A stretch of 64,000 bases of DNA from Escherichia coli. Its GTDB lineage: Bacteria > Pseudomonadota > Gammaproteobacteria > Enterobacterales > Enterobacteriaceae. Under the pieces are notes generated by a model, which saw only the letters and a program-made list of their open reading frames with translations, did no database searches and was not told the DNA's origin. The DNA lies in the NCBI RefSeq assembly GCF_041248615.1, contig NZ_CP158426.1; one strand, given 5' to 3'. Made by a program: the position numbers and the translations under genes. Shown here piece by piece: positions 7,929 to 19,362 of this stretch (the first letter of the stretch is position 1; each line of letters opens with the position of its first letter).

Positions 7929-8615
7929 GTGAAAACACTGGCAGAACGATTAAAGATAGGTAGAGAGAAAGCTGGCATGAGCCAAGCTCAACTAGCTGAA
8001 AAAATTGGACTTTCACAACAATCTGTAGCCAAAATAGAGAATGGCGAAACTCTACAACCGCGCAAAATTAAAGAAATTGCAAAAGTTTTAGGTGTATCAC
8101 AAAAGTGGTTACAACTTGGTATTGAAGACAACGCATCCATACCTGATCTTGTTGTAAAAGAAGCAGAAAGCACCGCATTAGACCCCGATATTTTCGTAAA
8201 CATTCCTGTTTTAGATGTCGAGTTATCGGCAGGTAACGGATGTCTGGCTGAAATAGTTGAATCAGCTATTGACTGGTTTCCGTTAAGAAGAGCAGATTTG
8301 AGAAAATCTGGCGTATGTGCATCTAATGCCAAGATCGTACAAATATGGGGGAACAGTTTATTACCGGTTCTCAATAATGGAGATCTTGTTGCCGTTGATA
8401 TTTCTCAAACCGTTCCTATTCGTGATGGCGATCTTTATGCCGTACGAGATGGTGTATTGCTAAGGGTTAAAATACTTATCAACTTACCTGACGGTGGCTT
8501 GATTCTTAGAAGCTTCAACAAAGATGAGTACCCAGATGAAATACTCACCTTTGAAGATAGACGAGCCAGAATTCATGTTATAGGTAGGGTATTCTGGTCA
8601 TCGCGAACTTGGTAA
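7929..8615 (+). CDS. CI-type prophage repressor (XRE HTH + S24 LexA-like peptidase, 228 aa, GTG start)
   Basis: HTH MSQAQLAEKIGLSQQSVAKIENG. Ala-Gly cleavage site (LSAGNG). GNSLLP Ser and a downstream Lys (LRVKIL). Confidence 0.9.
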   Translation: MKTLAERLKIGREKAGMSQAQLAEKIGLSQQSVAKIENGETLQPRKIKEIAKVLGVSQKWLQLGIEDNASIPDLVVKEAESTALDPDIFVNIPVLDVELSAGNGCLAEIVESAIDWFPLRRADLRKSGVCASNAKIVQIWGNSLLPVLNNGDLVAVDISQTVPIRDGDLYAVRDGVLLRVKILINLPDGGLILRSFNKDEYPDEILTFEDRRARIHVIGRVFWSSRTW

Positions 8616-9488
8616 TGCATCGAAAAGCATTTCTTCAGAAATAATTTTAAGTTTTGCACCATTATCATCCCTATAAGATATAGCCTTTTCGATCTTCCTT
8701 CCGTGACTAGAGAATTTCCAATCACGGGAGGAAAGCGTCCCAATTACTAAAAAATCCAACTTTTGAGTAATTCCACTACTGATGTTCCCACCAGCATTTT
8801 TAATCAAATTTTCAACTACGGCTCTCTTTCCTGCAACAAAAGTGCCTGTAAGACAATAGGTTTTACCCTCTAACTCTATCGAAGCCCCTACATCAATAGG
8901 CAGCCTGGTCGCCAAACCATCCACCACCCCACTTTCCAAGTCACATCCTGTGAAGTCTACTAATGCCTTATGTAGAGTTAAACTCTCATCTTCAGTAATA
9001 ACACCATCTTTAAGAATTTCCTTTACAAGTGCATAAAGTTTTTTTCCTGGGTAGTTGTTCTTCAAAGCTCCATTTTGCTCAAGCCACCAATTAAGATATC
9101 TTATTTCTTCTTGAGTTAAGTTCCGATCAGCAATTAATCCTTTACATAGTCCATTAAGTAAATGGACATCTACATCCTTGGAGTAAAAATCAATTTCAGG
9201 GATATCAAGAATTTCCCTCTGTATTTGGAGAAGACTATTTTTAAGGTCATCACGTTCTTCTGATGTGATTATTCCATCCGCAAGAATATCCGACACCCGT
9301 GCAGATAGACTTTTTATAACTCCATTATTGATAATCTGCTTTGCTTCAAGTAACCATGTATCTAAGTAAAGAACCTCCTCTTCACGGACAACTCCATCTG
9401 CAATGATTCCATCAATGATGCTAATCAAGTTAGCAAATAACTTGTCCCGGTTCTGTGTGTAATTAAAAGCGTAAAGCGCGTCTTCCAT
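8598..9488 (-). CDS. BRCT-domain protein with four TerB-like DG-[VI]-I/V-x-x-E-E repeats (296 aa from ATG-9488)
   Basis: C-terminal GKTYCLTGTFVAGKRAVVENLIKNAGGNISSGITQKLDFLVIG...W is the BRCT pattern. Strong AAAGGAGG SD. AT-rich by eye. Convergent with cI, with an 18-nt overlap. Confidence 0.75.
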   Translation of the reverse strand: MEDALYAFNYTQNRDKLFANLISIIDGIIADGVVREEEVLYLDTWLLEAKQIINNGVIKSLSARVSDILADGIITSEERDDLKNSLLQIQREILDIPEIDFYSKDVDVHLLNGLCKGLIADRNLTQEEIRYLNWWLEQNGALKNNYPGKKLYALVKEILKDGVITEDESLTLHKALVDFTGCDLESGVVDGLATRLPIDVGASIELEGKTYCLTGTFVAGKRAVVENLIKNAGGNISSGITQKLDFLVIGTLSSRDWKFSSHGRKIEKAISYRDDNGAKLKIISEEMLFDALPSSR

Positions 9489-9540
9489 ACAACCTCCTTT
9501 TTTTGATAATCCTTGCACTCCTTGGCTACTCGTTCAAACC

Positions 9541-10260: not shown

Positions 10261-10384
10261 GTTGTGGTGAATGCGGCTCAGCGCACGCGGGTTAAGGTTG
10301 AGGCTGACAGTCGACCTTCTGTGGATACCCACCCGCCTGGTGTGCAACCTTCGCCAGGCACCGGGAGGCACCCGGCACCACAAC
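10261..10384 (+). ncRNA. Candidate structured RNA domain (multi-helix junction closed by a 9-bp helix)
   Basis: gttgtggtg (10261-10269) pairs perfectly with caccacaac (10376-10384). Internal hairpins: aaggt/acctt, cctgg/ccagg, ccggg/cccgg, gcgggt/acccgc. All six frames give only overlapping low-quality ORFs. Confidence 0.45.
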
Positions 10385-10404
10385 TTTATGCTGTGTGTAG
10401 TCTT

Positions 10405-10451
10405 GGCGGTACCAGTTTGTACACTTGCTTCCGGCTGGTACCGCTCTTTTT
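10405..10451 (+). terminator. Intrinsic terminator hairpin; the 5' arm resembles the DicF sRNA core
   Basis: ggcggtaccag-19 nt-ctggtaccgct, followed by CTTTTT. TTGGCGGTAcCAGTTT compares with DicF TTGGCGGTATCAGTTT, recalled from memory. Confidence 0.5.
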
Positions 10452-10453
10452 AC

Positions 10454-10538
10454 AAAACAGAGAAGAGCATCACCGGACGACGGGCTCATAACCCAATCCA
10501 TCCGGGCGGCTGCCACCGCAGGTGTTCTTCTCTGTTTT
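10454..10538 (+). ncRNA. Second candidate structured RNA domain closed by a perfect 13-bp helix
   Basis: aaaacagagaaga (10454-10466) pairs with tcttctctgtttt (10526-10538). Internal hairpins: ccgga/tccgg and gcgg/ccgc. Confidence 0.4.
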
Positions 10539-10588
10539 GTGGAGAAACCAACCGACCTTGCAGGGTCGATATGATGAGGAGCAGCAAA

Positions 10589-11044: not shown

Positions 11045-11320
11045 GTGGCTTCTGTTTCTATCAGCTGTCCCTCCTGTTCAGCTACTGACGGGGTGGTGCG
11101 TAACGGCAAAAGCACCGCCGGACATCAGCGCTATCTCTGCTCTCACTGCCGTAAAACATGGCAACTGCAGTTCACTTACACCGCTTCTCAACCCGGTACG
11201 CACCAGAAAATCATTGATATGGCCATGAATGGCGTTGGATGCCGGGCAACCGCCCGCATTATGGGCGTTGGCCTCAACACGATTTTCCGCCATTTAAAAA
11301 ACTCAGGCCGCAGTCGGTAA
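11045..11320 (+). CDS. insA: IS1 InsA
   Basis: [43 protein letters not shown]... Confidence 0.95.
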
Positions 11321-11742
11321 CCTCGCGCATACAGCCGGGCAGTGACGTCATCGTCTGCGCGGAAATGGACGAACAGTGGGGATACGTCGGGGCTAAATCG
11401 CGCCAGCGCTGGCTGTTTTACGCGTATGACAGGCTCCGGAAGACGGTTGTTGCGCACGTATTCGGTGAACGCACTATGGCGACGCTGGGGCGTCTTATGA
11501 GCCTGCTGTCACCCTTTGACGTGGTGATATGGATGACGGATGGCTGGCCGCTGTATGAATCCCGCCTGAAGGGAAAGCTGCACGTAATCAGCAAGCGATA
11601 TACGCAGCGAATTGAGCGGCATAACCTGAATCTGAGGCAGCACCTGGCACGGCTGGGACGGAAGTCGCTGTCGTTCTCAAAATCGGTGGAGCTGCATGAC
11701 AAAGTCATCGGGCATTATCTGAACATAAAACACTATCAATAA
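11239..11742 (+). CDS. insB: IS1 InsB' frame (expressed as InsAB' by a -1 frameshift)
   Basis: A6C slippery run at 11296-11302. The rest of the frame reads as the canonical InsB sequence. Confidence 0.95.
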
Positions 11743-13634: not shown

Positions 13635-14254
13635 TGACCACTTACACCGATAAGGAACAGATTAAAGAAATCAAAGAACGAATCGGCAGCCTAGACGTGC
13701 GAGACAATGTTGAGCGCCTTGCTTATGAAATTGCTCTGGCATCACTGGAAGCAGAGCCGGTGGCGTGGCTTCATTCAGACAATGGCTTAGGTATTCCGGC
13801 AATAACCAGGAGCAAAAACATTGCTGACAGTTGGTTATCAAAGGGCTGGTATATTCAGCCGCTATATATGGCTCAGCCAGTGTCGGTGGTGCCGGATGCT
13901 CTTCCGTCTTTAAATAATGGCATAGTCGGCTTTGATGAAGGCTGGAACGCCTGCCGCGCCGCCATGCTTCATGGTGCCAAACCTGTAAGCCAGACTTACA
14001 AGTTGAACGAGCTGTCGGGCAACTCTCCGGTAACTCCGGATGGTTGGATAAGCTGTAGTGAGCGAATGCCGAACGATAAACAGTATGTTTGGTGTTGGGG
14101 GAAGTCTTACGGCTGGACTGAGTGCGATACCTTCGAAGGGTATTACGATTGGTCGAGAAACAAATGGTGGGCAGTTACTGACGATGTGGAAGAACCGGCA
14201 TCGAAAGTAACCCACTGGATGCCGCTACCGGAGCCGCCGCAGGAGGTAAAGTAA
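13634..14254 (+). CDS. DUF551-domain protein (206 aa)
   Basis: C-terminal DGWISCSERMPNDKQYVWCWG...VTHWMPLPEPP. Confidence 0.6.
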   Translation: MTTYTDKEQIKEIKERIGSLDVRDNVERLAYEIALASLEAEPVAWLHSDNGLGIPAITRSKNIADSWLSKGWYIQPLYMAQPVSVVPDALPSLNNGIVGFDEGWNACRAAMLHGAKPVSQTYKLNELSGNSPVTPDGWISCSERMPNDKQYVWCWGKSYGWTECDTFEGYYDWSRNKWWAVTDDVEEPASKVTHWMPLPEPPQEVK

Positions 14255-14436
14255 TGAACAACTTAATGACAACTAAACAAGTCGCCAACTTCTGTGGAGT
14301 TTCAGTATCGACAGTTCTTCGCTGGAACAGCGTAAACAGGAGAACTGGCCAGAAATACAGGCCAGACTTTCCAGATCCTGATATTAAATCATGCCCAAAT
14401 AAATGGGCATCAGAGCCTGTACATAGATTTGTGTAA
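14254..14436 (+). pseudogene. AlpA/excisionase-like HTH gene, 3' end replaced by an IS insertion
   Basis: MTTKQVANFCGVSVSTVLRWN is the HTH. The IS left end at 14413 swaps the native tail RKIYKFAGVIE (readable after the IS at 15736 onward) for EPVHRFV. Confidence 0.7.
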
Positions 14437-15727
14437 TTGCCTGATTTTGATATGTTCAATCCAGCATCAAATGAAGGTTAATTTATGGACGAAAAACAGT
14501 TACAGGCTCTGGCTAACGAACTGGCCAAAAACCTCAAAACCCCTGAAGACCTCAGTCAGTTTGATCGGCTGCTGAAAAAGCTCAGCGTTGAAGCCGCTCT
14601 CAATGCAGAGATGACACACCATCTTGGGTATGAGAAAAATCAGTCCAGACCAGGAGCTAACTCCCGCAACGGTTATTCCACAAAGACCGTTATCACAGGC
14701 GACGGTCCACTGGAACTGCGTACTCCGCGCGATCGTGACGGTACCTTCGAACCACAACTGGTAAAGAAAAATCAGACCCGTATTACCGGGATGGATAACC
14801 AGATCCTCTCGTTGTATGCCAAAGGGATGACCACCCGTGAGATAGCCGCTGCGTTCAAAGAACTGTATGACGCAGATGTTTCACCGGCACTGATATCAAA
14901 GGTTACCGATGCCGTGATGGAGCAGGTTGTAGAATGGCAAAACCGACCACTGGATGCTGTTTACCCCATTGTTTATCTTGACTGTATCGTCCTGAAAGTT
15001 CGGCAGGACAGTCGCATCATCAACAAATCGGTGTTCCTGGCACTGGGCATCAATATCGAAGGTCAGAAAGAACTGCTGGGTATGTGGCTGGCCGAAAATG
15101 AAGGGGCGAAGTTCTGGCTCAATGTGCTGACTGAACTGAAAAACCGCGGTCTGAACGATATCCTCATCGCCTGTGTGGATGGCCTGAAAGGCTTCCCGGA
15201 TGCCATCAACACAGTATATCCGAAGGCCCGCATCCAGTTATGCATCGTGCATATGGTGCGCAACAGCCTGCGCTTCGTGTCATGGAAGGACTACAAAGCC
15301 GTCACTCGCGACCTGAAAGCGATTTATCAGGCTCCCACGGAAGAGGCAGGTCAGCAGGCACTGGAAGCGTTCGCTGCGGCCTGGGACAGTCGCTATCCTC
15401 AGATAAGCCGAAGCTGGCAGGCTAACTGGCCGAATCTTGCCACGTTCTTCGCTTATCCAACGGACATCCGCAAAGTGATCTATACGACGAATGCCATCGA
15501 GTCGCTAAACAGCGTGATCCGCCATGCGATCAAAAAGCGTAAAGTGTTCCCGACAGACGACTCGGTGAAAAAAGTGGTGTGGCTGGCAATCCAGTCTGCG
15601 TCCCAGAAATGGACGATGCCGTTGAAGGACTGGCGAATGGCAATGAGCCGCTTTATTATCGAGTTCGGTGACCGCCTGGACGGTCACTTCTGAGAAAAGG
15701 CATTTACACAGAATCCTAAACAGGCTC
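14413..15727 (+). mobile_element. IS256-family (mutator-type) insertion sequence, 1315 bp
   Basis: Imperfect ~29-bp terminal inverted repeats (gagcctgtacatagatttgtgtaattgcc / ggcatttacacagaatcctaaacaggctc). An 8-bp target duplication GGGCATCA sits at 14405-14412 and 15728-15735. Confidence 0.9.
14485..15693 (+). CDS. IS256-family transposase (402 aa)
   Basis: Mutator-family layout: ...YLDCIVLKVR..., ...IACVDGLKGFPDAI..., ...TTNAIESLN... Confidence 0.92.
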   Translation: MDEKQLQALANELAKNLKTPEDLSQFDRLLKKLSVEAALNAEMTHHLGYEKNQSRPGANSRNGYSTKTVITGDGPLELRTPRDRDGTFEPQLVKKNQTRITGMDNQILSLYAKGMTTREIAAAFKELYDADVSPALISKVTDAVMEQVVEWQNRPLDAVYPIVYLDCIVLKVRQDSRIINKSVFLALGINIEGQKELLGMWLAENEGAKFWLNVLTELKNRGLNDILIACVDGLKGFPDAINTVYPKARIQLCIVHMVRNSLRFVSWKDYKAVTRDLKAIYQAPTEEAGQQALEAFAAAWDSRYPQISRSWQANWPNLATFFAYPTDIRKVIYTTNAIESLNSVIRHAIKKRKVFPTDDSVKKVVWLAIQSASQKWTMPLKDWRMAMSRFIIEFGDRLDGHF

Positions 15728-15878
15728 GGGCATCACGCAAGATTTACAAATTTGCGGGAGTTATTGAGTAACGAGCATTAGCTCAGATGAGAGTTGGTAC
15801 ACCTATGGCACAGAGCTAAACCTGATCTGTTATATTCGCTCTGTGCCGGAAGTATGCCATATTTATTACATACAGTTG

Positions 15879-18011
15879 TCAATCTTTAAGACTAATTGTG
15901 ATTGCATCTGGAAATCCAATTTGGCTATAGCACATAGTTTCGGTTATGAATAATTTTCTATCGATAAAATCAAGTACATCTTTTTTCGTGAGCCCCGTTA
16001 ACATCGTCAATTTGTTAATTACATAATCATACCAATCATGGTGAAGCATGTTTATATACATGTTAATATCAACTGCATCTTTCTTCCATGAATTATTCGG
16101 TATCAAATCTTCAGATAAAAATCCTCTTATTAAATCGCTTGCATAGGACATCCTAAGAAAAACAGAAAGAAAAAGCCTTACATTAACATGTGTAAAATTT
16201 GTAGATAGCGTCGAAGGAAACTCGTAAAACCGGTAGATCAACCGACTTACAAAAACAGCAGAGTCTATCGCATTTACAGGCAGTAATGTTCCGATGACAC
16301 TTAATGCACCACTTATAACGAAGCCATTAGCAACAGAGGCATGAGAACCACTTAGGGCAGATGTTAAACATGCACTCAGAATTACGATAGGAGGAATTCT
16401 TGCTATTTTTCTCAAACTCCAAGTGTCCACTTTATCCTCACCTATTATTAACCATCCATGACTCCCATTGCCATCATGGTTTCCATGACAATCCATAACA
16501 AGAATATGACCTTGATATTGATTTAGAGCATCAATAAACTCAGCTTTCGATCTAACATCAATAATCTCGCAATCAAGATCTGGCATCTGTTTTTTAAATA
16601 TCTCAATTGCGTTCTCTAATATGAACTTTAAGTGATCATCAGGCTCAAAAGAACGTATAACTAAAACCTTTCTCAACTCAGATGCTTTTACTAAAACGCG
16701 CGGAAAAGCAGAGGCGCTCTGTAGAAGAACGTTACCAGGCGTAGCATTTATTCTTGATATCTCATGACTGAACATTATAGGTATGTTATTAAACCTAATC
16801 CAATCCAATGGTACATCACAAACAAAGGACAAATCGCTATAGTTTTTACTTATATATGTTCTCAACTTGCAACCAAGGGCTCTTCGAATAACAGTATTGA
16901 ATGCTTTAGATTTAGTGATGAATGCTTCACTATTTATCCCAGAAGAAGTTGCAAGATCTTCAAGATTTTTCAAATAATTGGAGTAATGATTTATTGCATT
17001 TGGCAATCTTATTGCTGGGATTTTTTTATTTATGCTAAATAAAGTAATCGCAGCTGTTGTTAATCGCATTTCAGCGCGTCTTAGTGAGGTGAGGTAACGG
17101 AAAGCAGGACTTTTAAAAAGTTCTTTTCTATCTGAATTTATATCAAGTCTAATTCCAGAATAGCCTGGATTCCTCAACACTCCATCAATAAGGAATTTTT
17201 TCTCAATTGTGGATAAATTTTCCGTTATTAACTCATAAAAGTCATTATTTTTATCATATAAAAAAGAGTGCATACCCGGAGCAAAAAGTAAGACTTCCGT
17301 TGGAAGTGGTATATCTAATTCCTTTAAACATTCGGTGTATGCATCAACGCTATGAAGTATTATTTCTATAAACTCTCTTTTGCTACTACCATCTTTAATT
17401 CTTTTTGGTGGAGATAGCATATAGCCAAGTGATTCAATTAACAACTCATTGGGTAGTGTTGAATTGTTAAGCGTCGATCTCCAAGGTGATTTATTAAATA
17501 AAGCCCCTCTTCGCTTCAACTTCGTTGATATTTTCTTTTCACTGTGATTTTTTCTTATTTTATCCTCAATGAATTTCAACCGAGAGAAGAGCACCTTATC
17601 AAATGAGTATATACTATTAATCTTATTAAGTGGTAGATCAGCGCGTTTAGAATTGCAACAAATTATAGGTGGTATAGCAAAATGTTTTTTTAAAGCACAA
17701 ACATACGAAAAATCTTCTTTAGCACAAAAAATTAAGCAAAATGGCGTTTGATAAATATTTGGTATTTTTTCAAGATTTTCTTTAGATATTAAAAAAATAG
17801 GATTTAGCCCGCTTAGAGTAGGCTGAAAGTTATCATTTTCACTGACAAAAATCTCACTAATTTCTTTTGGTGTTTTGGCCAATAAAAAAAGAATGTTGGA
17901 TATCTCTGGGTTGAGGAGGCCAGTATCGAAACCTTGGATTATGGTTTGTTCCCCAGTAGTAGGCATGATTACAACTTTAAGTATCGCCCCGTGTTCCTGT
18001 AACAGTTCCAT
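15879..18011 (-). CDS. CHAT/caspase-like domain protein with a ~470-aa unassigned N-terminal region (710 aa from ATG-18011; track ORF extends to 18068 via TTG)
   Basis: His-Cys dyad context ILVMDCHGNHDG (His codon 16485-16487) and PPIVILSACLTSA (Cys codon 16368-16370), ~38 aa apart. Very AT-rich. TATAAT on the minus strand at 18095-18100. Confidence 0.7.
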   Translation of the reverse strand: MELLQEHGAILKVVIMPTTGEQTIIQGFDTGLLNPEISNILFLLAKTPKEISEIFVSENDNFQPTLSGLNPIFLISKENLEKIPNIYQTPFCLIFCAKEDFSYVCALKKHFAIPPIICCNSKRADLPLNKINSIYSFDKVLFSRLKFIEDKIRKNHSEKKISTKLKRRGALFNKSPWRSTLNNSTLPNELLIESLGYMLSPPKRIKDGSSKREFIEIILHSVDAYTECLKELDIPLPTEVLLFAPGMHSFLYDKNNDFYELITENLSTIEKKFLIDGVLRNPGYSGIRLDINSDRKELFKSPAFRYLTSLRRAEMRLTTAAITLFSINKKIPAIRLPNAINHYSNYLKNLEDLATSSGINSEAFITKSKAFNTVIRRALGCKLRTYISKNYSDLSFVCDVPLDWIRFNNIPIMFSHEISRINATPGNVLLQSASAFPRVLVKASELRKVLVIRSFEPDDHLKFILENAIEIFKKQMPDLDCEIIDVRSKAEFIDALNQYQGHILVMDCHGNHDGNGSHGWLIIGEDKVDTWSLRKIARIPPIVILSACLTSALSGSHASVANGFVISGALSVIGTLLPVNAIDSAVFVSRLIYRFYEFPSTLSTNFTHVNVRLFLSVFLRMSYASDLIRGFLSEDLIPNNSWKKDAVDINMYINMLHHDWYDYVINKLTMLTGLTKKDVLDFIDRKLFITETMCYSQIGFPDAITISLKD

Positions 18012-18144
18012 CAAAAATCCTAATAAACAAATAAGAATGTTATAATCAAAAACTGCAAGGATTAGCAAGCAATTCTTACAGTTTTAAGAAGGGGATTATA
18101 CCGCAATATGCATAATTGCGTTCTGCCTATGCAAAATGTCAGTT

Positions 18145-19362
18145 CTAGTCTGAACAAGTACAAGTAACTATCGATTCAACTCTCTCCCACCATGCCTGGT
18201 AAGCTTTACGCTGTTCATCTAAATAATCGCTCTTGTCATAAACCTGCCATACCCCTGGCAGTTTATGACCGAGCATTATTTCTGCAATATGAGGTGCAGT
18301 AAGATCAGAAAAGTTTGTTCGTGCTGTTCGTCTCAAATCATGAAGAGACCAATGAGGGAATTGATACCCCAAACGCCGCCATGCGTACTGCATTAAATTG
18401 TAAGGCAGCGACTGCAATGATGTCCGGCCAACGGGTTCCCTGCTTCCTTCCTTAGTAAAAAGCATATCGGAACCATTGTTCATAGAGATAACGTACTTTA
18501 TAAGCTCTTCAACCGGTTCAATAATGGGGCGCTTTAGCGGTTCGCCTGTTATATCCCCTGTCTTATGTCGTTCTGGCGGTACAGTCCATACCTTATTAAT
18601 GAAATCAAAATCATTCACCCTAGCGGTAATTAGCTCTGAACTACGGCAGCCAAAATGCAGCAATAGTTTAATGAAGGCCCGGTATTTAGGAACCATTCGA
18701 GAACCATCGATCGCAGCATAAAGGATTTTAATTTCATCATGTGTCAGAAACCGTTTCTTCTGACCTTTACGGATATCCATATCTTTACCCGTGATATCCG
18801 ACAGCGGGCGAGTTTCAATGAGCTTTCTCTTATACGCCCAGACATGGGCCTGCTTTGCGTTAATTAGCAATCGGTCTGCTATTGCTGGAGTCTTAGTGCT
18901 AAGAGGCTCCAGGACTTCTAACCAATCATGCAATGTAGCTGCATCGTGAGGGATATTCCCGATTTTAGAGAACAGGTGCAGCTCAAACGAGCGGAGTATC
19001 TGTTCAGAACCTTTTTTATTTTTTACACAATATGCTTCATACCAGGCACGGATCACAGACTCTACCGTCATGGCTTCAGTAGCTTTTCGTTTTTCAGCCT
19101 GCTTGACTAATCGTGGATTGCGGTTTGACTCGAGTTCACCACGGAGACGGATAACTTCTTCTCTGGCCTCTTTTAATCCAGTTGCCGGGTAAGTTCCGAT
19201 ATCAAGGCGCTCACCTTTCCCTGCCCATTGATAACGATATTGGAACACTACGCGACCTTTCGGTGATACTCTGACAGACAGACCATCACGATCGGATTTA
19301 ACCAAAACCTTATCACGTTCCTTTCCAACGACTGAACGCAACCACGCATCAGACAGCGCCAT
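18145..19362 (-). CDS. Tyrosine integrase, P4-like (405 aa)
   Basis: N-terminal DUF4102-type arm-binding region (LSVRVSPKGRVVFQYRY). Catalytic WSLHDLRRTARTNF and LGHK...VYDKSDY. Confidence 0.92.
   Translation of the reverse strand: MALSDAWLRSVVGKERDKVLVKSDRDGLSVRVSPKGRVVFQYRYQWAGKGERLDIGTYPATGLKEAREEVIRLRGELESNRNPRLVKQAEKRKATEAMTVESVIRAWYEAYCVKNKKGSEQILRSFELHLFSKIGNIPHDAATLHDWLEVLEPLSTKTPAIADRLLINAKQAHVWAYKRKLIETRPLSDITGKDMDIRKGQKKRFLTHDEIKILYAAIDGSRMVPKYRAFIKLLLHFGCRSSELITARVNDFDFINKVWTVPPERHKTGDITGEPLKRPIIEPVEELIKYVISMNNGSDMLFTKEGSREPVGRTSLQSLPYNLMQYAWRRLGYQFPHWSLHDLRRTARTNFSDLTAPHIAEIMLGHKLPGVWQVYDKSDYLDEQRKAYQAWWERVESIVTCTCSD

Follow-up and report, generated by a model that had tools for sequence, protein, structure and literature searches.

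A probable bovA gene of the Borvo anti-phage defence system as cargo of a cdtI-like prophage in Escherichia coli

Introduction

Borvo is a published anti-phage defence system that consists of a single gene, bovA. Its verified representative, SG178 of Escherichia coli 403116, is recorded with a length of 2569 bp and codes for a CHAT protease, BovA, of 710 aa (Millman et al., 2022, Table S2, doi 10.1101/2022.05.11.491447); the main text of this discovery preprint does not mention Borvo by name. The systems of that study were cloned together with intergenic spaces to make use of their native promoters, and the 403116 clone held bovA alone with about 300 bp of its native 3' flank (Millman et al., 2022). 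When a BovA homolog from Bacillus was screened alongside, it was not protective (Millman et al., 2022), so that family membership alone is no guarantee of activity.

A Borvo allele that is near-identical to the gene described here, cloned as a single gene with its native promoter, makes E. coli resistant to phages such as T5, SECphi4 and SECphi18. Borvo-carrying cultures survive infection at low MOI, whereas at high MOI they are arrested or collapse, a pattern that is indicative of abortive infection (Stokar-Avihail et al., 2023, doi 10.1101/2022.08.27.505566). When the DNA polymerase of SECphi4 is expressed alone, it is toxic only in cells that carry Borvo, and escape alleles relieve this toxicity; the escapers of T5, SECphi4 and SECphi18 have missense changes in the proofreading (3'-5' exonuclease) cleft of polymerases that are otherwise dissimilar (Stokar-Avihail et al., 2023). 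Whether Borvo senses the polymerase directly or indirectly was left unsettled by the authors (Stokar-Avihail et al., 2023). The trigger polymerase of SECphi18 is the anti-DarTG protein mga47, and a two-subunit ‘Borvo-like’ system is active in Streptococcus thermophilus. Later papers and reviews up to 2026 describe Borvo as poorly understood or list its mechanism as unknown, and our search of the literature and of the supplements of the discovery preprint returned no published His/Cys mutants, substrate or structure of BovA.

Here, we analyze a gene in a stretch of 64,000 nucleotides of E. coli DNA (contig NZ_CP158426.1 of the RefSeq assembly GCF_041248615.1), which we refer to as the window in the following. 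A first-pass annotation of the raw sequence had proposed a single-gene, protease-based abortive-infection or exclusion function for it. We conclude with high confidence, from sequence comparisons, that the gene is bovA. As this gene has already been named and validated, the finding is that of an already known system in a known kind of location.

The window gene and its relationship to Borvo

The gene is located at 15879..18011 on the minus strand and codes for 710 aa plus a stop codon, as supported by the list of open reading frames, the RefSeq CDS, its PADLOC match and the conservation of its start. The longest frame in this list (15879-18068, minus strand) opens with a TTG and would yield 729 aa; with the upstream sequences of seven homologs aligned, the ATG at 18011 (MELLQE...), and not the upstream TTG, proves to be the start that is common to them, so that the protein has 710 aa. 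The RefSeq annotation names the same product of 710 aa a ‘CHAT domain-containing protein’ (WP_192459786.1). An open frame of about this size, opposite to the early-left operon and between an xis-like gene and int, had been described in the first-pass annotation and is found both in the frame list and in RefSeq. The impression by eye that it is AT-rich compared with int and the phage genes is likewise borne out: its computed GC content is 0.32-0.39, while that of int and of the early genes of the phage is about 0.43-0.55. Chance is far from sufficient to explain an open frame of 2.1 kb in DNA of 33% GC that has full-length homologs at 31-85% identity.

In profile searches, the protein matches the PADLOC model for BovA (PDLC03831) over its full length, with E = 2.4e-241 and 801 bits; numbered along the 729-aa TTG frame, residues 23-728 are aligned with profile positions 3-715 of 720. 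This is the outcome of the PADLOC search that had been suggested for the window. The match to the Pfam CHAT family has a score of 26.4 bits and thereby exceeds the gathering score of 24. Among the PHROGs, only the unannotated family phrog_34827 is matched, again over the full length, and the sole match in NCBIfam is Csx29, which lies far below threshold (14.7 against a cutoff of 300).

Over the first 399 of 710 residues, which were compared, the window protein and 403116 BovA are identical in 398, the difference being N57S; at the DNA level, 397 of the first 399 bases of the clone are identical, with differences at 18035 and 17842. The remaining 311 C-terminal residues are presumably identical as well, given that all E. 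coli copies are at least 99% identical. Phage cdtI encodes a further copy, orf33, which agrees with 403116 BovA over the 399 residues compared and differs from the window protein in three residues (N57S, T433A and I586V). The locus in the window thereby shares with Borvo of 403116 the length of 710 aa, the CHAT dyad, the single-gene layout and the upstream DNA, whereas it is set apart by N57S, by the base change at 18035 in its 5' region and by the replacement of the DNA from 151 bp past the bovA stop by the insertion sequence IS1414.

Conserved dyad and predicted structure

As expected for BovA, the C-terminal part of the protein contains a caspase-like (CHAT) domain, in which a His/Cys dyad is conserved. 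The dyad is found in the sequences ILVMDCHGNHDG (residues 503-514), which harbors the CHG motif, and PPIVILSACLTSA (residues 540-552), which harbors the SAC motif. The codons of the predicted catalytic residues, His509 (16485..16487, minus strand) and Cys548 (16368..16370, minus strand), were computed and lie exactly where they had been placed by eye. The CHG and SAC contexts are present as described, with a spacing of 39 residues instead of the estimated ~38. In an alignment of the family, which comprises 28 of the 34 clusters of relatives found (see below), C508-H509-G510 and S546-A547-C548 are invariant among the 28 members down to 31% identity. About 70 further positions are invariant in the same alignment, many of them in the N-terminal half. 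In a comparison with PDB chains, Cys548 falls on the Cys region of Csx29.

An AlphaFold2 model, computed from the 28-sequence alignment, has a mean pLDDT of 83.7 and a pTM of 0.84. A Foldseek search with this model against the PDB returned, at E <= 1e-3, only CHAT-clan proteases, namely Csx29 (3.5e-7), separases, DdvA and SAVED-CHAT. Together with the Pfam match, these hits substantiate the caspase/CHAT fold that had initially been read from two short motifs: judged by the model, the protein of the window, whose frame is intact, is predicted to fold as a CHAT/caspase protease. From the ~300 residues aligned by Foldseek, the start of the protease module can tentatively be placed near residue 390-440. 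When the PDB copy used here was searched with the family profile, only Csx29 was matched, weakly and at the Cys strand; a solved structure of a Borvo protein was not among the entries.

By its secondary structure in the model, the N-terminal part starts with two alpha/beta modules, one at about 10-130 and the other at about 170-290, and continues with a helical bundle at about 295-390. Nothing assignable had been seen by eye in the ~470 residues that precede the dyad region, and the N-terminal region indeed matches no recognizable family. According to Pfam and the model, it contains no TPR array, SAVED domain or membrane anchor, and neither a signal peptide nor a secretion context is apparent for BovA.

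The relatives in the Foldseek results invite comparison with other CHAT systems. Csx29 (TPR-CHAT), the protease of the type III-E CRISPR effector Craspase, was considered as an identity for the window protein and rejected on its NCBIfam score. The two proteins are just 11-13% identical, and Csx29 has a TPR N-terminus, whereas BovA is free of TPR repeats. Annotation and PADLOC searches of the neighboring genes revealed no Cas7-11/gRAMP or Csx30 near bovA. The triggers also differ, a phage DNA polymerase for Borvo and a target RNA for Craspase. SAVED-CHAT, a CHAT protease that is activated by cyclic oligonucleotides and linked to CBASS or type III CRISPR, was rejected as well: the combination of a SAVED sensor and a nearby cyclic-oligonucleotide synthase is absent, and BovA has no SAVED domain. 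Likewise, BovA has neither the helical superstructure of separase nor a transmembrane segment as in the CHAT-containing anti-sigma factor DdvA. Its N-terminal region matches none of the regulatory domains of SAVED-CHAT, separase or DdvA.

Upstream region and expression

The 403116 clone, which relied on its native promoter for expression, begins at the base corresponding to 18145, where the int stop codon ends; consequently, a working promoter must lie within the 133 bases 18012-18144 upstream of bovA (minus strand). Two candidates are found there. The TATAAT that had been put forward as the promoter of the gene is present at 18100-18095 (minus strand), but it has no recognizable -35 element and is degraded in relatives of 83-85% identity. 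The inverted repeat noted beside it (GCAAT-N7-ATTGC) is real and extends to CGCAAT-N7-ATTGCG (18102-18107 / 18115-18120). The same 83-85% identical relatives retain the second candidate, TTGCTA-N18-TATAAC (18068-18039); an AGGA ribosome-binding site is located about 8 nt before the ATG. A consensus scan for promoters and terminators, which found fewer promoter-like sites than in shuffled sequences, returned neither of the two upstream candidates. Just downstream of int, we also observed a 15-nt imperfect inverted repeat (18049-18063 / 18071-18085; 87% complementary, with a gap of 7 nt), which overlaps the -35 element of the conserved candidate and could be an operator or the terminator of int.

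These features bear on the question of whether the gene, although a genuine bovA, might be silent or inactive in the source strain and add no phage resistance, a possibility that we consider improbable. Three causes could be proposed. The first is the substitution N57S, which sets the window allele apart from those of 403116, cdtI and the representative of the 99% cluster; residue 57, however, is at the edge of the one disordered loop in the model (59-68, pLDDT below 50) and does not belong to a conserved column. The second is IS1414, which is convergent with bovA and could alter its 3' processing or give rise to antisense or read-through transcription, but the 3' hairpin region between the bovA stop and the insertion is retained. 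The third is H-NS-type silencing of DNA with 33% GC; the region is very AT-rich, and yet its promoter part is one base (18035) away from a native-promoter clone that is active. Loss of the gene does occur in nature, as in O121:H19, whose copy lacks 1 bp and is annotated as two CDSs, whereas the frame in the window is intact.

The prophage and its interrupted excisionase

The Borvo gene is carried by a KplE1/cdtI-like lambdoid prophage that abuts yjjG-rimI-holD-rsmC, and it forms a cargo between xis (plus strand) and int (minus strand), opposite in strand to the early-left genes yfdP/Q/R and a DUF551 gene and next to an insertion sequence. Directly upstream of bovA, at 18145..19362 (minus strand), is int, which encodes a tyrosine integrase with matches to the Pfam families Phage_integrase, Arm-DNA-bind_3 and Phage_int_M; this assignment agrees with RefSeq and with the neighbor of bovA in cdtI. 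The cargo slot between int and xis, as it had been recognized from the sequence, also exists in the phages cdtI (orf33, NC_009514) and Ayreon (MF807953), which have bovA between excisionase and integrase genes, with 99.8% DNA identity. In these two phages, bovA is labelled as a hypothetical protein only and xis is intact. The remainder of their genomes differs from the prophage of the window in places, for example in the region beside the repressor.

The excisionase gene of the window is interrupted. By alignment with the cdtI excisionase (orf34), its first 53 native codons are found at 14254..14412 (plus strand), followed by the 1315-bp element IS1414 of the IS256 family (14413..15727, plus strand); its last 11 codons and the stop are displaced to 15728..15771 (plus strand) and start with the duplicated 8 bp. 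IS1414 was assigned by its boundaries, terminal inverted repeats, target duplication and RefSeq name; its transposase matches Pfam Transposase_mut with E = 2.7e-119, and the 8-bp duplication, GGGCATCA, is present at 14405-14412 and 15728-15735. A comparison of the translations shows that, in place of the native 64 aa, xis now encodes 53 native and 7 IS-derived residues. The prophage, being xis::IS1414, may therefore be unable to excise efficiently, and bovA may have been locked in the chromosome as a fixed host gene.

Several side observations concern the rest of the prophage. In the early-left operon, an IS1B (insA/insB, with a programmed frameshift) is inserted between yfdP and yfdQ at about 11045-11742, and just upstream of it, RefSeq annotates a frameshifted hypothetical gene at about 10264-10574. 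The prophage appears to be in decay, with bovA still intact. At 8598-9518 (minus strand), a gene for a BRCT-domain protein of 306 aa (Pfam BRCT, E = 1.4e-6; weak match to the PADLOC defence candidate PDC-S48, E = 2.7e-7) is convergent with the gene of a cI-like HTH/S24 repressor (7929-8615); cdtI has different genes at this place, and with the BRCT-domain gene, the immunity region may hold a further cargo or defence gene. Finally, between the convergent xis and bovA there is an imperfect inverted repeat of 25 nt (15795-15859), the core of which, GGCACAGAGC/GCTCTGTGCC, is perfect. It has no T-run and was not called by the terminator scan, but may be a bidirectional terminator of xis and bovA.

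Given this setting, one could suppose that BovA serves the life cycle of the prophage or virulence, for instance by processing a phage or host regulator or by acting in the host-cell biology of phages that convert their hosts with cdt and cif. Phage cdtI does convert its hosts to production of cytolethal distending toxin and Cif, and bovA sits beside int and xis on the strand of int, so that read-through from int is conceivable. We nevertheless regard such a role as very improbable: BovA shows no signal peptide or secretion context, its homologs also occur in integrative and conjugative elements (ICEs) and in non-phage islands, and the cloned gene, outside of any prophage, confers phage resistance with the signature of abortive infection (Stokar-Avihail et al., 2023, doi 10.1101/2022.08.27.505566).

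Distribution and genomic context

Among 5426 complete E. coli genomes, 31 have bovA (about 0.6%). All of these copies are at least 99% identical, chromosomal and adjoined by the same integrase gene. In the 30 genomes other than that of the window, bovA is next to int without IS1414. As a separate observation, the match in O121:H19 strains (e.g. NZ_CP022407.1, 2980987-2983118) comprises 2132 bases, compared with 2133 in the window, and is annotated as two CDSs, which suggests a frameshifted, inactivated copy.

A word-indexed search for more distant relatives of BovA yielded 34 clusters, with identities that range from 99% (508 member sequences) to 31%, and nearly all with a length of 700-720 aa. 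For seven divergent homologs located on contigs, we compared the neighborhoods. Two of the seven are found in the transfer regions of ICEs (with TraU, TraC, TraG and TraI) and two at the ends of prophages, beyond tail fiber or tail spike genes; of the others, one is on an element that bears umuDC, one in an AlpA/YfjJ-type island and one in an island-like cluster, where it adjoins an SMC/AAA_23-type ATPase. No neighboring gene is common to the seven loci. The neighborhoods, which had been named as a check on the defence reading, are those of mobile elements or are island-like. In the window itself, PADLOC models identified no Borvo partner among the 10 neighboring open reading frames, with int, xis and the insertion sequence as neighbors. 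These contexts fit a stand-alone gene that travels as a cargo of mobile elements.

The same data decide against the alternative offered in the first-pass annotation, namely that the gene is the survivor of a larger defence cassette whose partners were lost when the insertion sequence arrived. It is true that an IS256-family element ends 151 bp past the bovA stop and that some CHAT proteases, such as Csx29 and SAVED-CHAT, need partner proteins or signals, but we reject this idea, to which we attach next to no probability, because nothing was lost between xis and bovA: IS1414 interrupts xis and not bovA, its 8-bp duplication inside xis is intact, and its excision in silico restores the layout of cdtI and Ayreon base for base. 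The insertion is specific to this strain, as it is absent from the 30 other E. coli genomes and from both phages, where the similarity starts at 15728 and xis-bovA-int occur in IS-free form. These IS-free relatives have no extra conserved gene between xis and bovA, the divergent homologs lack a common neighbor, and a single gene is enough for defence in the validated clone.

Implications for the function of BovA

With the window gene very probably being bovA, its function can be viewed in light of the published work. The single-gene, abortive-infection type of defence agrees with what was reported for a near-identical allele, whereas the protease step is one that we infer. In the mechanism that we propose, the N-terminal ~400 residues would hold the C-terminal CHAT protease inactive. 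Upon infection, a phage polymerase, or a product or consequence of its activity, would be sensed and the CHAT module released; the activated His509/Cys548 dyad would then cleave at least one protein of the host (or the phage), and growth would stop before progeny is released. Taken jointly, we consider these protease-activation steps moderately probable. In a lysogen, BovA would thus protect the clone that hosts the prophage against superinfecting lytic phages.

A more specific version is that the N-terminal ~400 residues constitute a new type of receptor, which would recognize the proofreading cleft of unrelated phage polymerases directly and switch a caspase-like protease allosterically. This idea is tentative, and we would rather expect it to prove incorrect.

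The case is a true positive and, at the same time, a rediscovery, in that a function was read from raw sequence alone for a gene that is the archetypal Borvo allele. The central questions about Borvo, i.e. how the phage DNA polymerase is sensed and what the protease cuts, are not advanced by the window. What is gained is a modest amount of context, as temperate phages of the cdtI/Ayreon type can now be said to carry a validated Borvo gene as a cargo in their xis-int slot. Beyond this, the confident model of BovA and its N-terminal region without a known fold define what a structural study of this family must explain.
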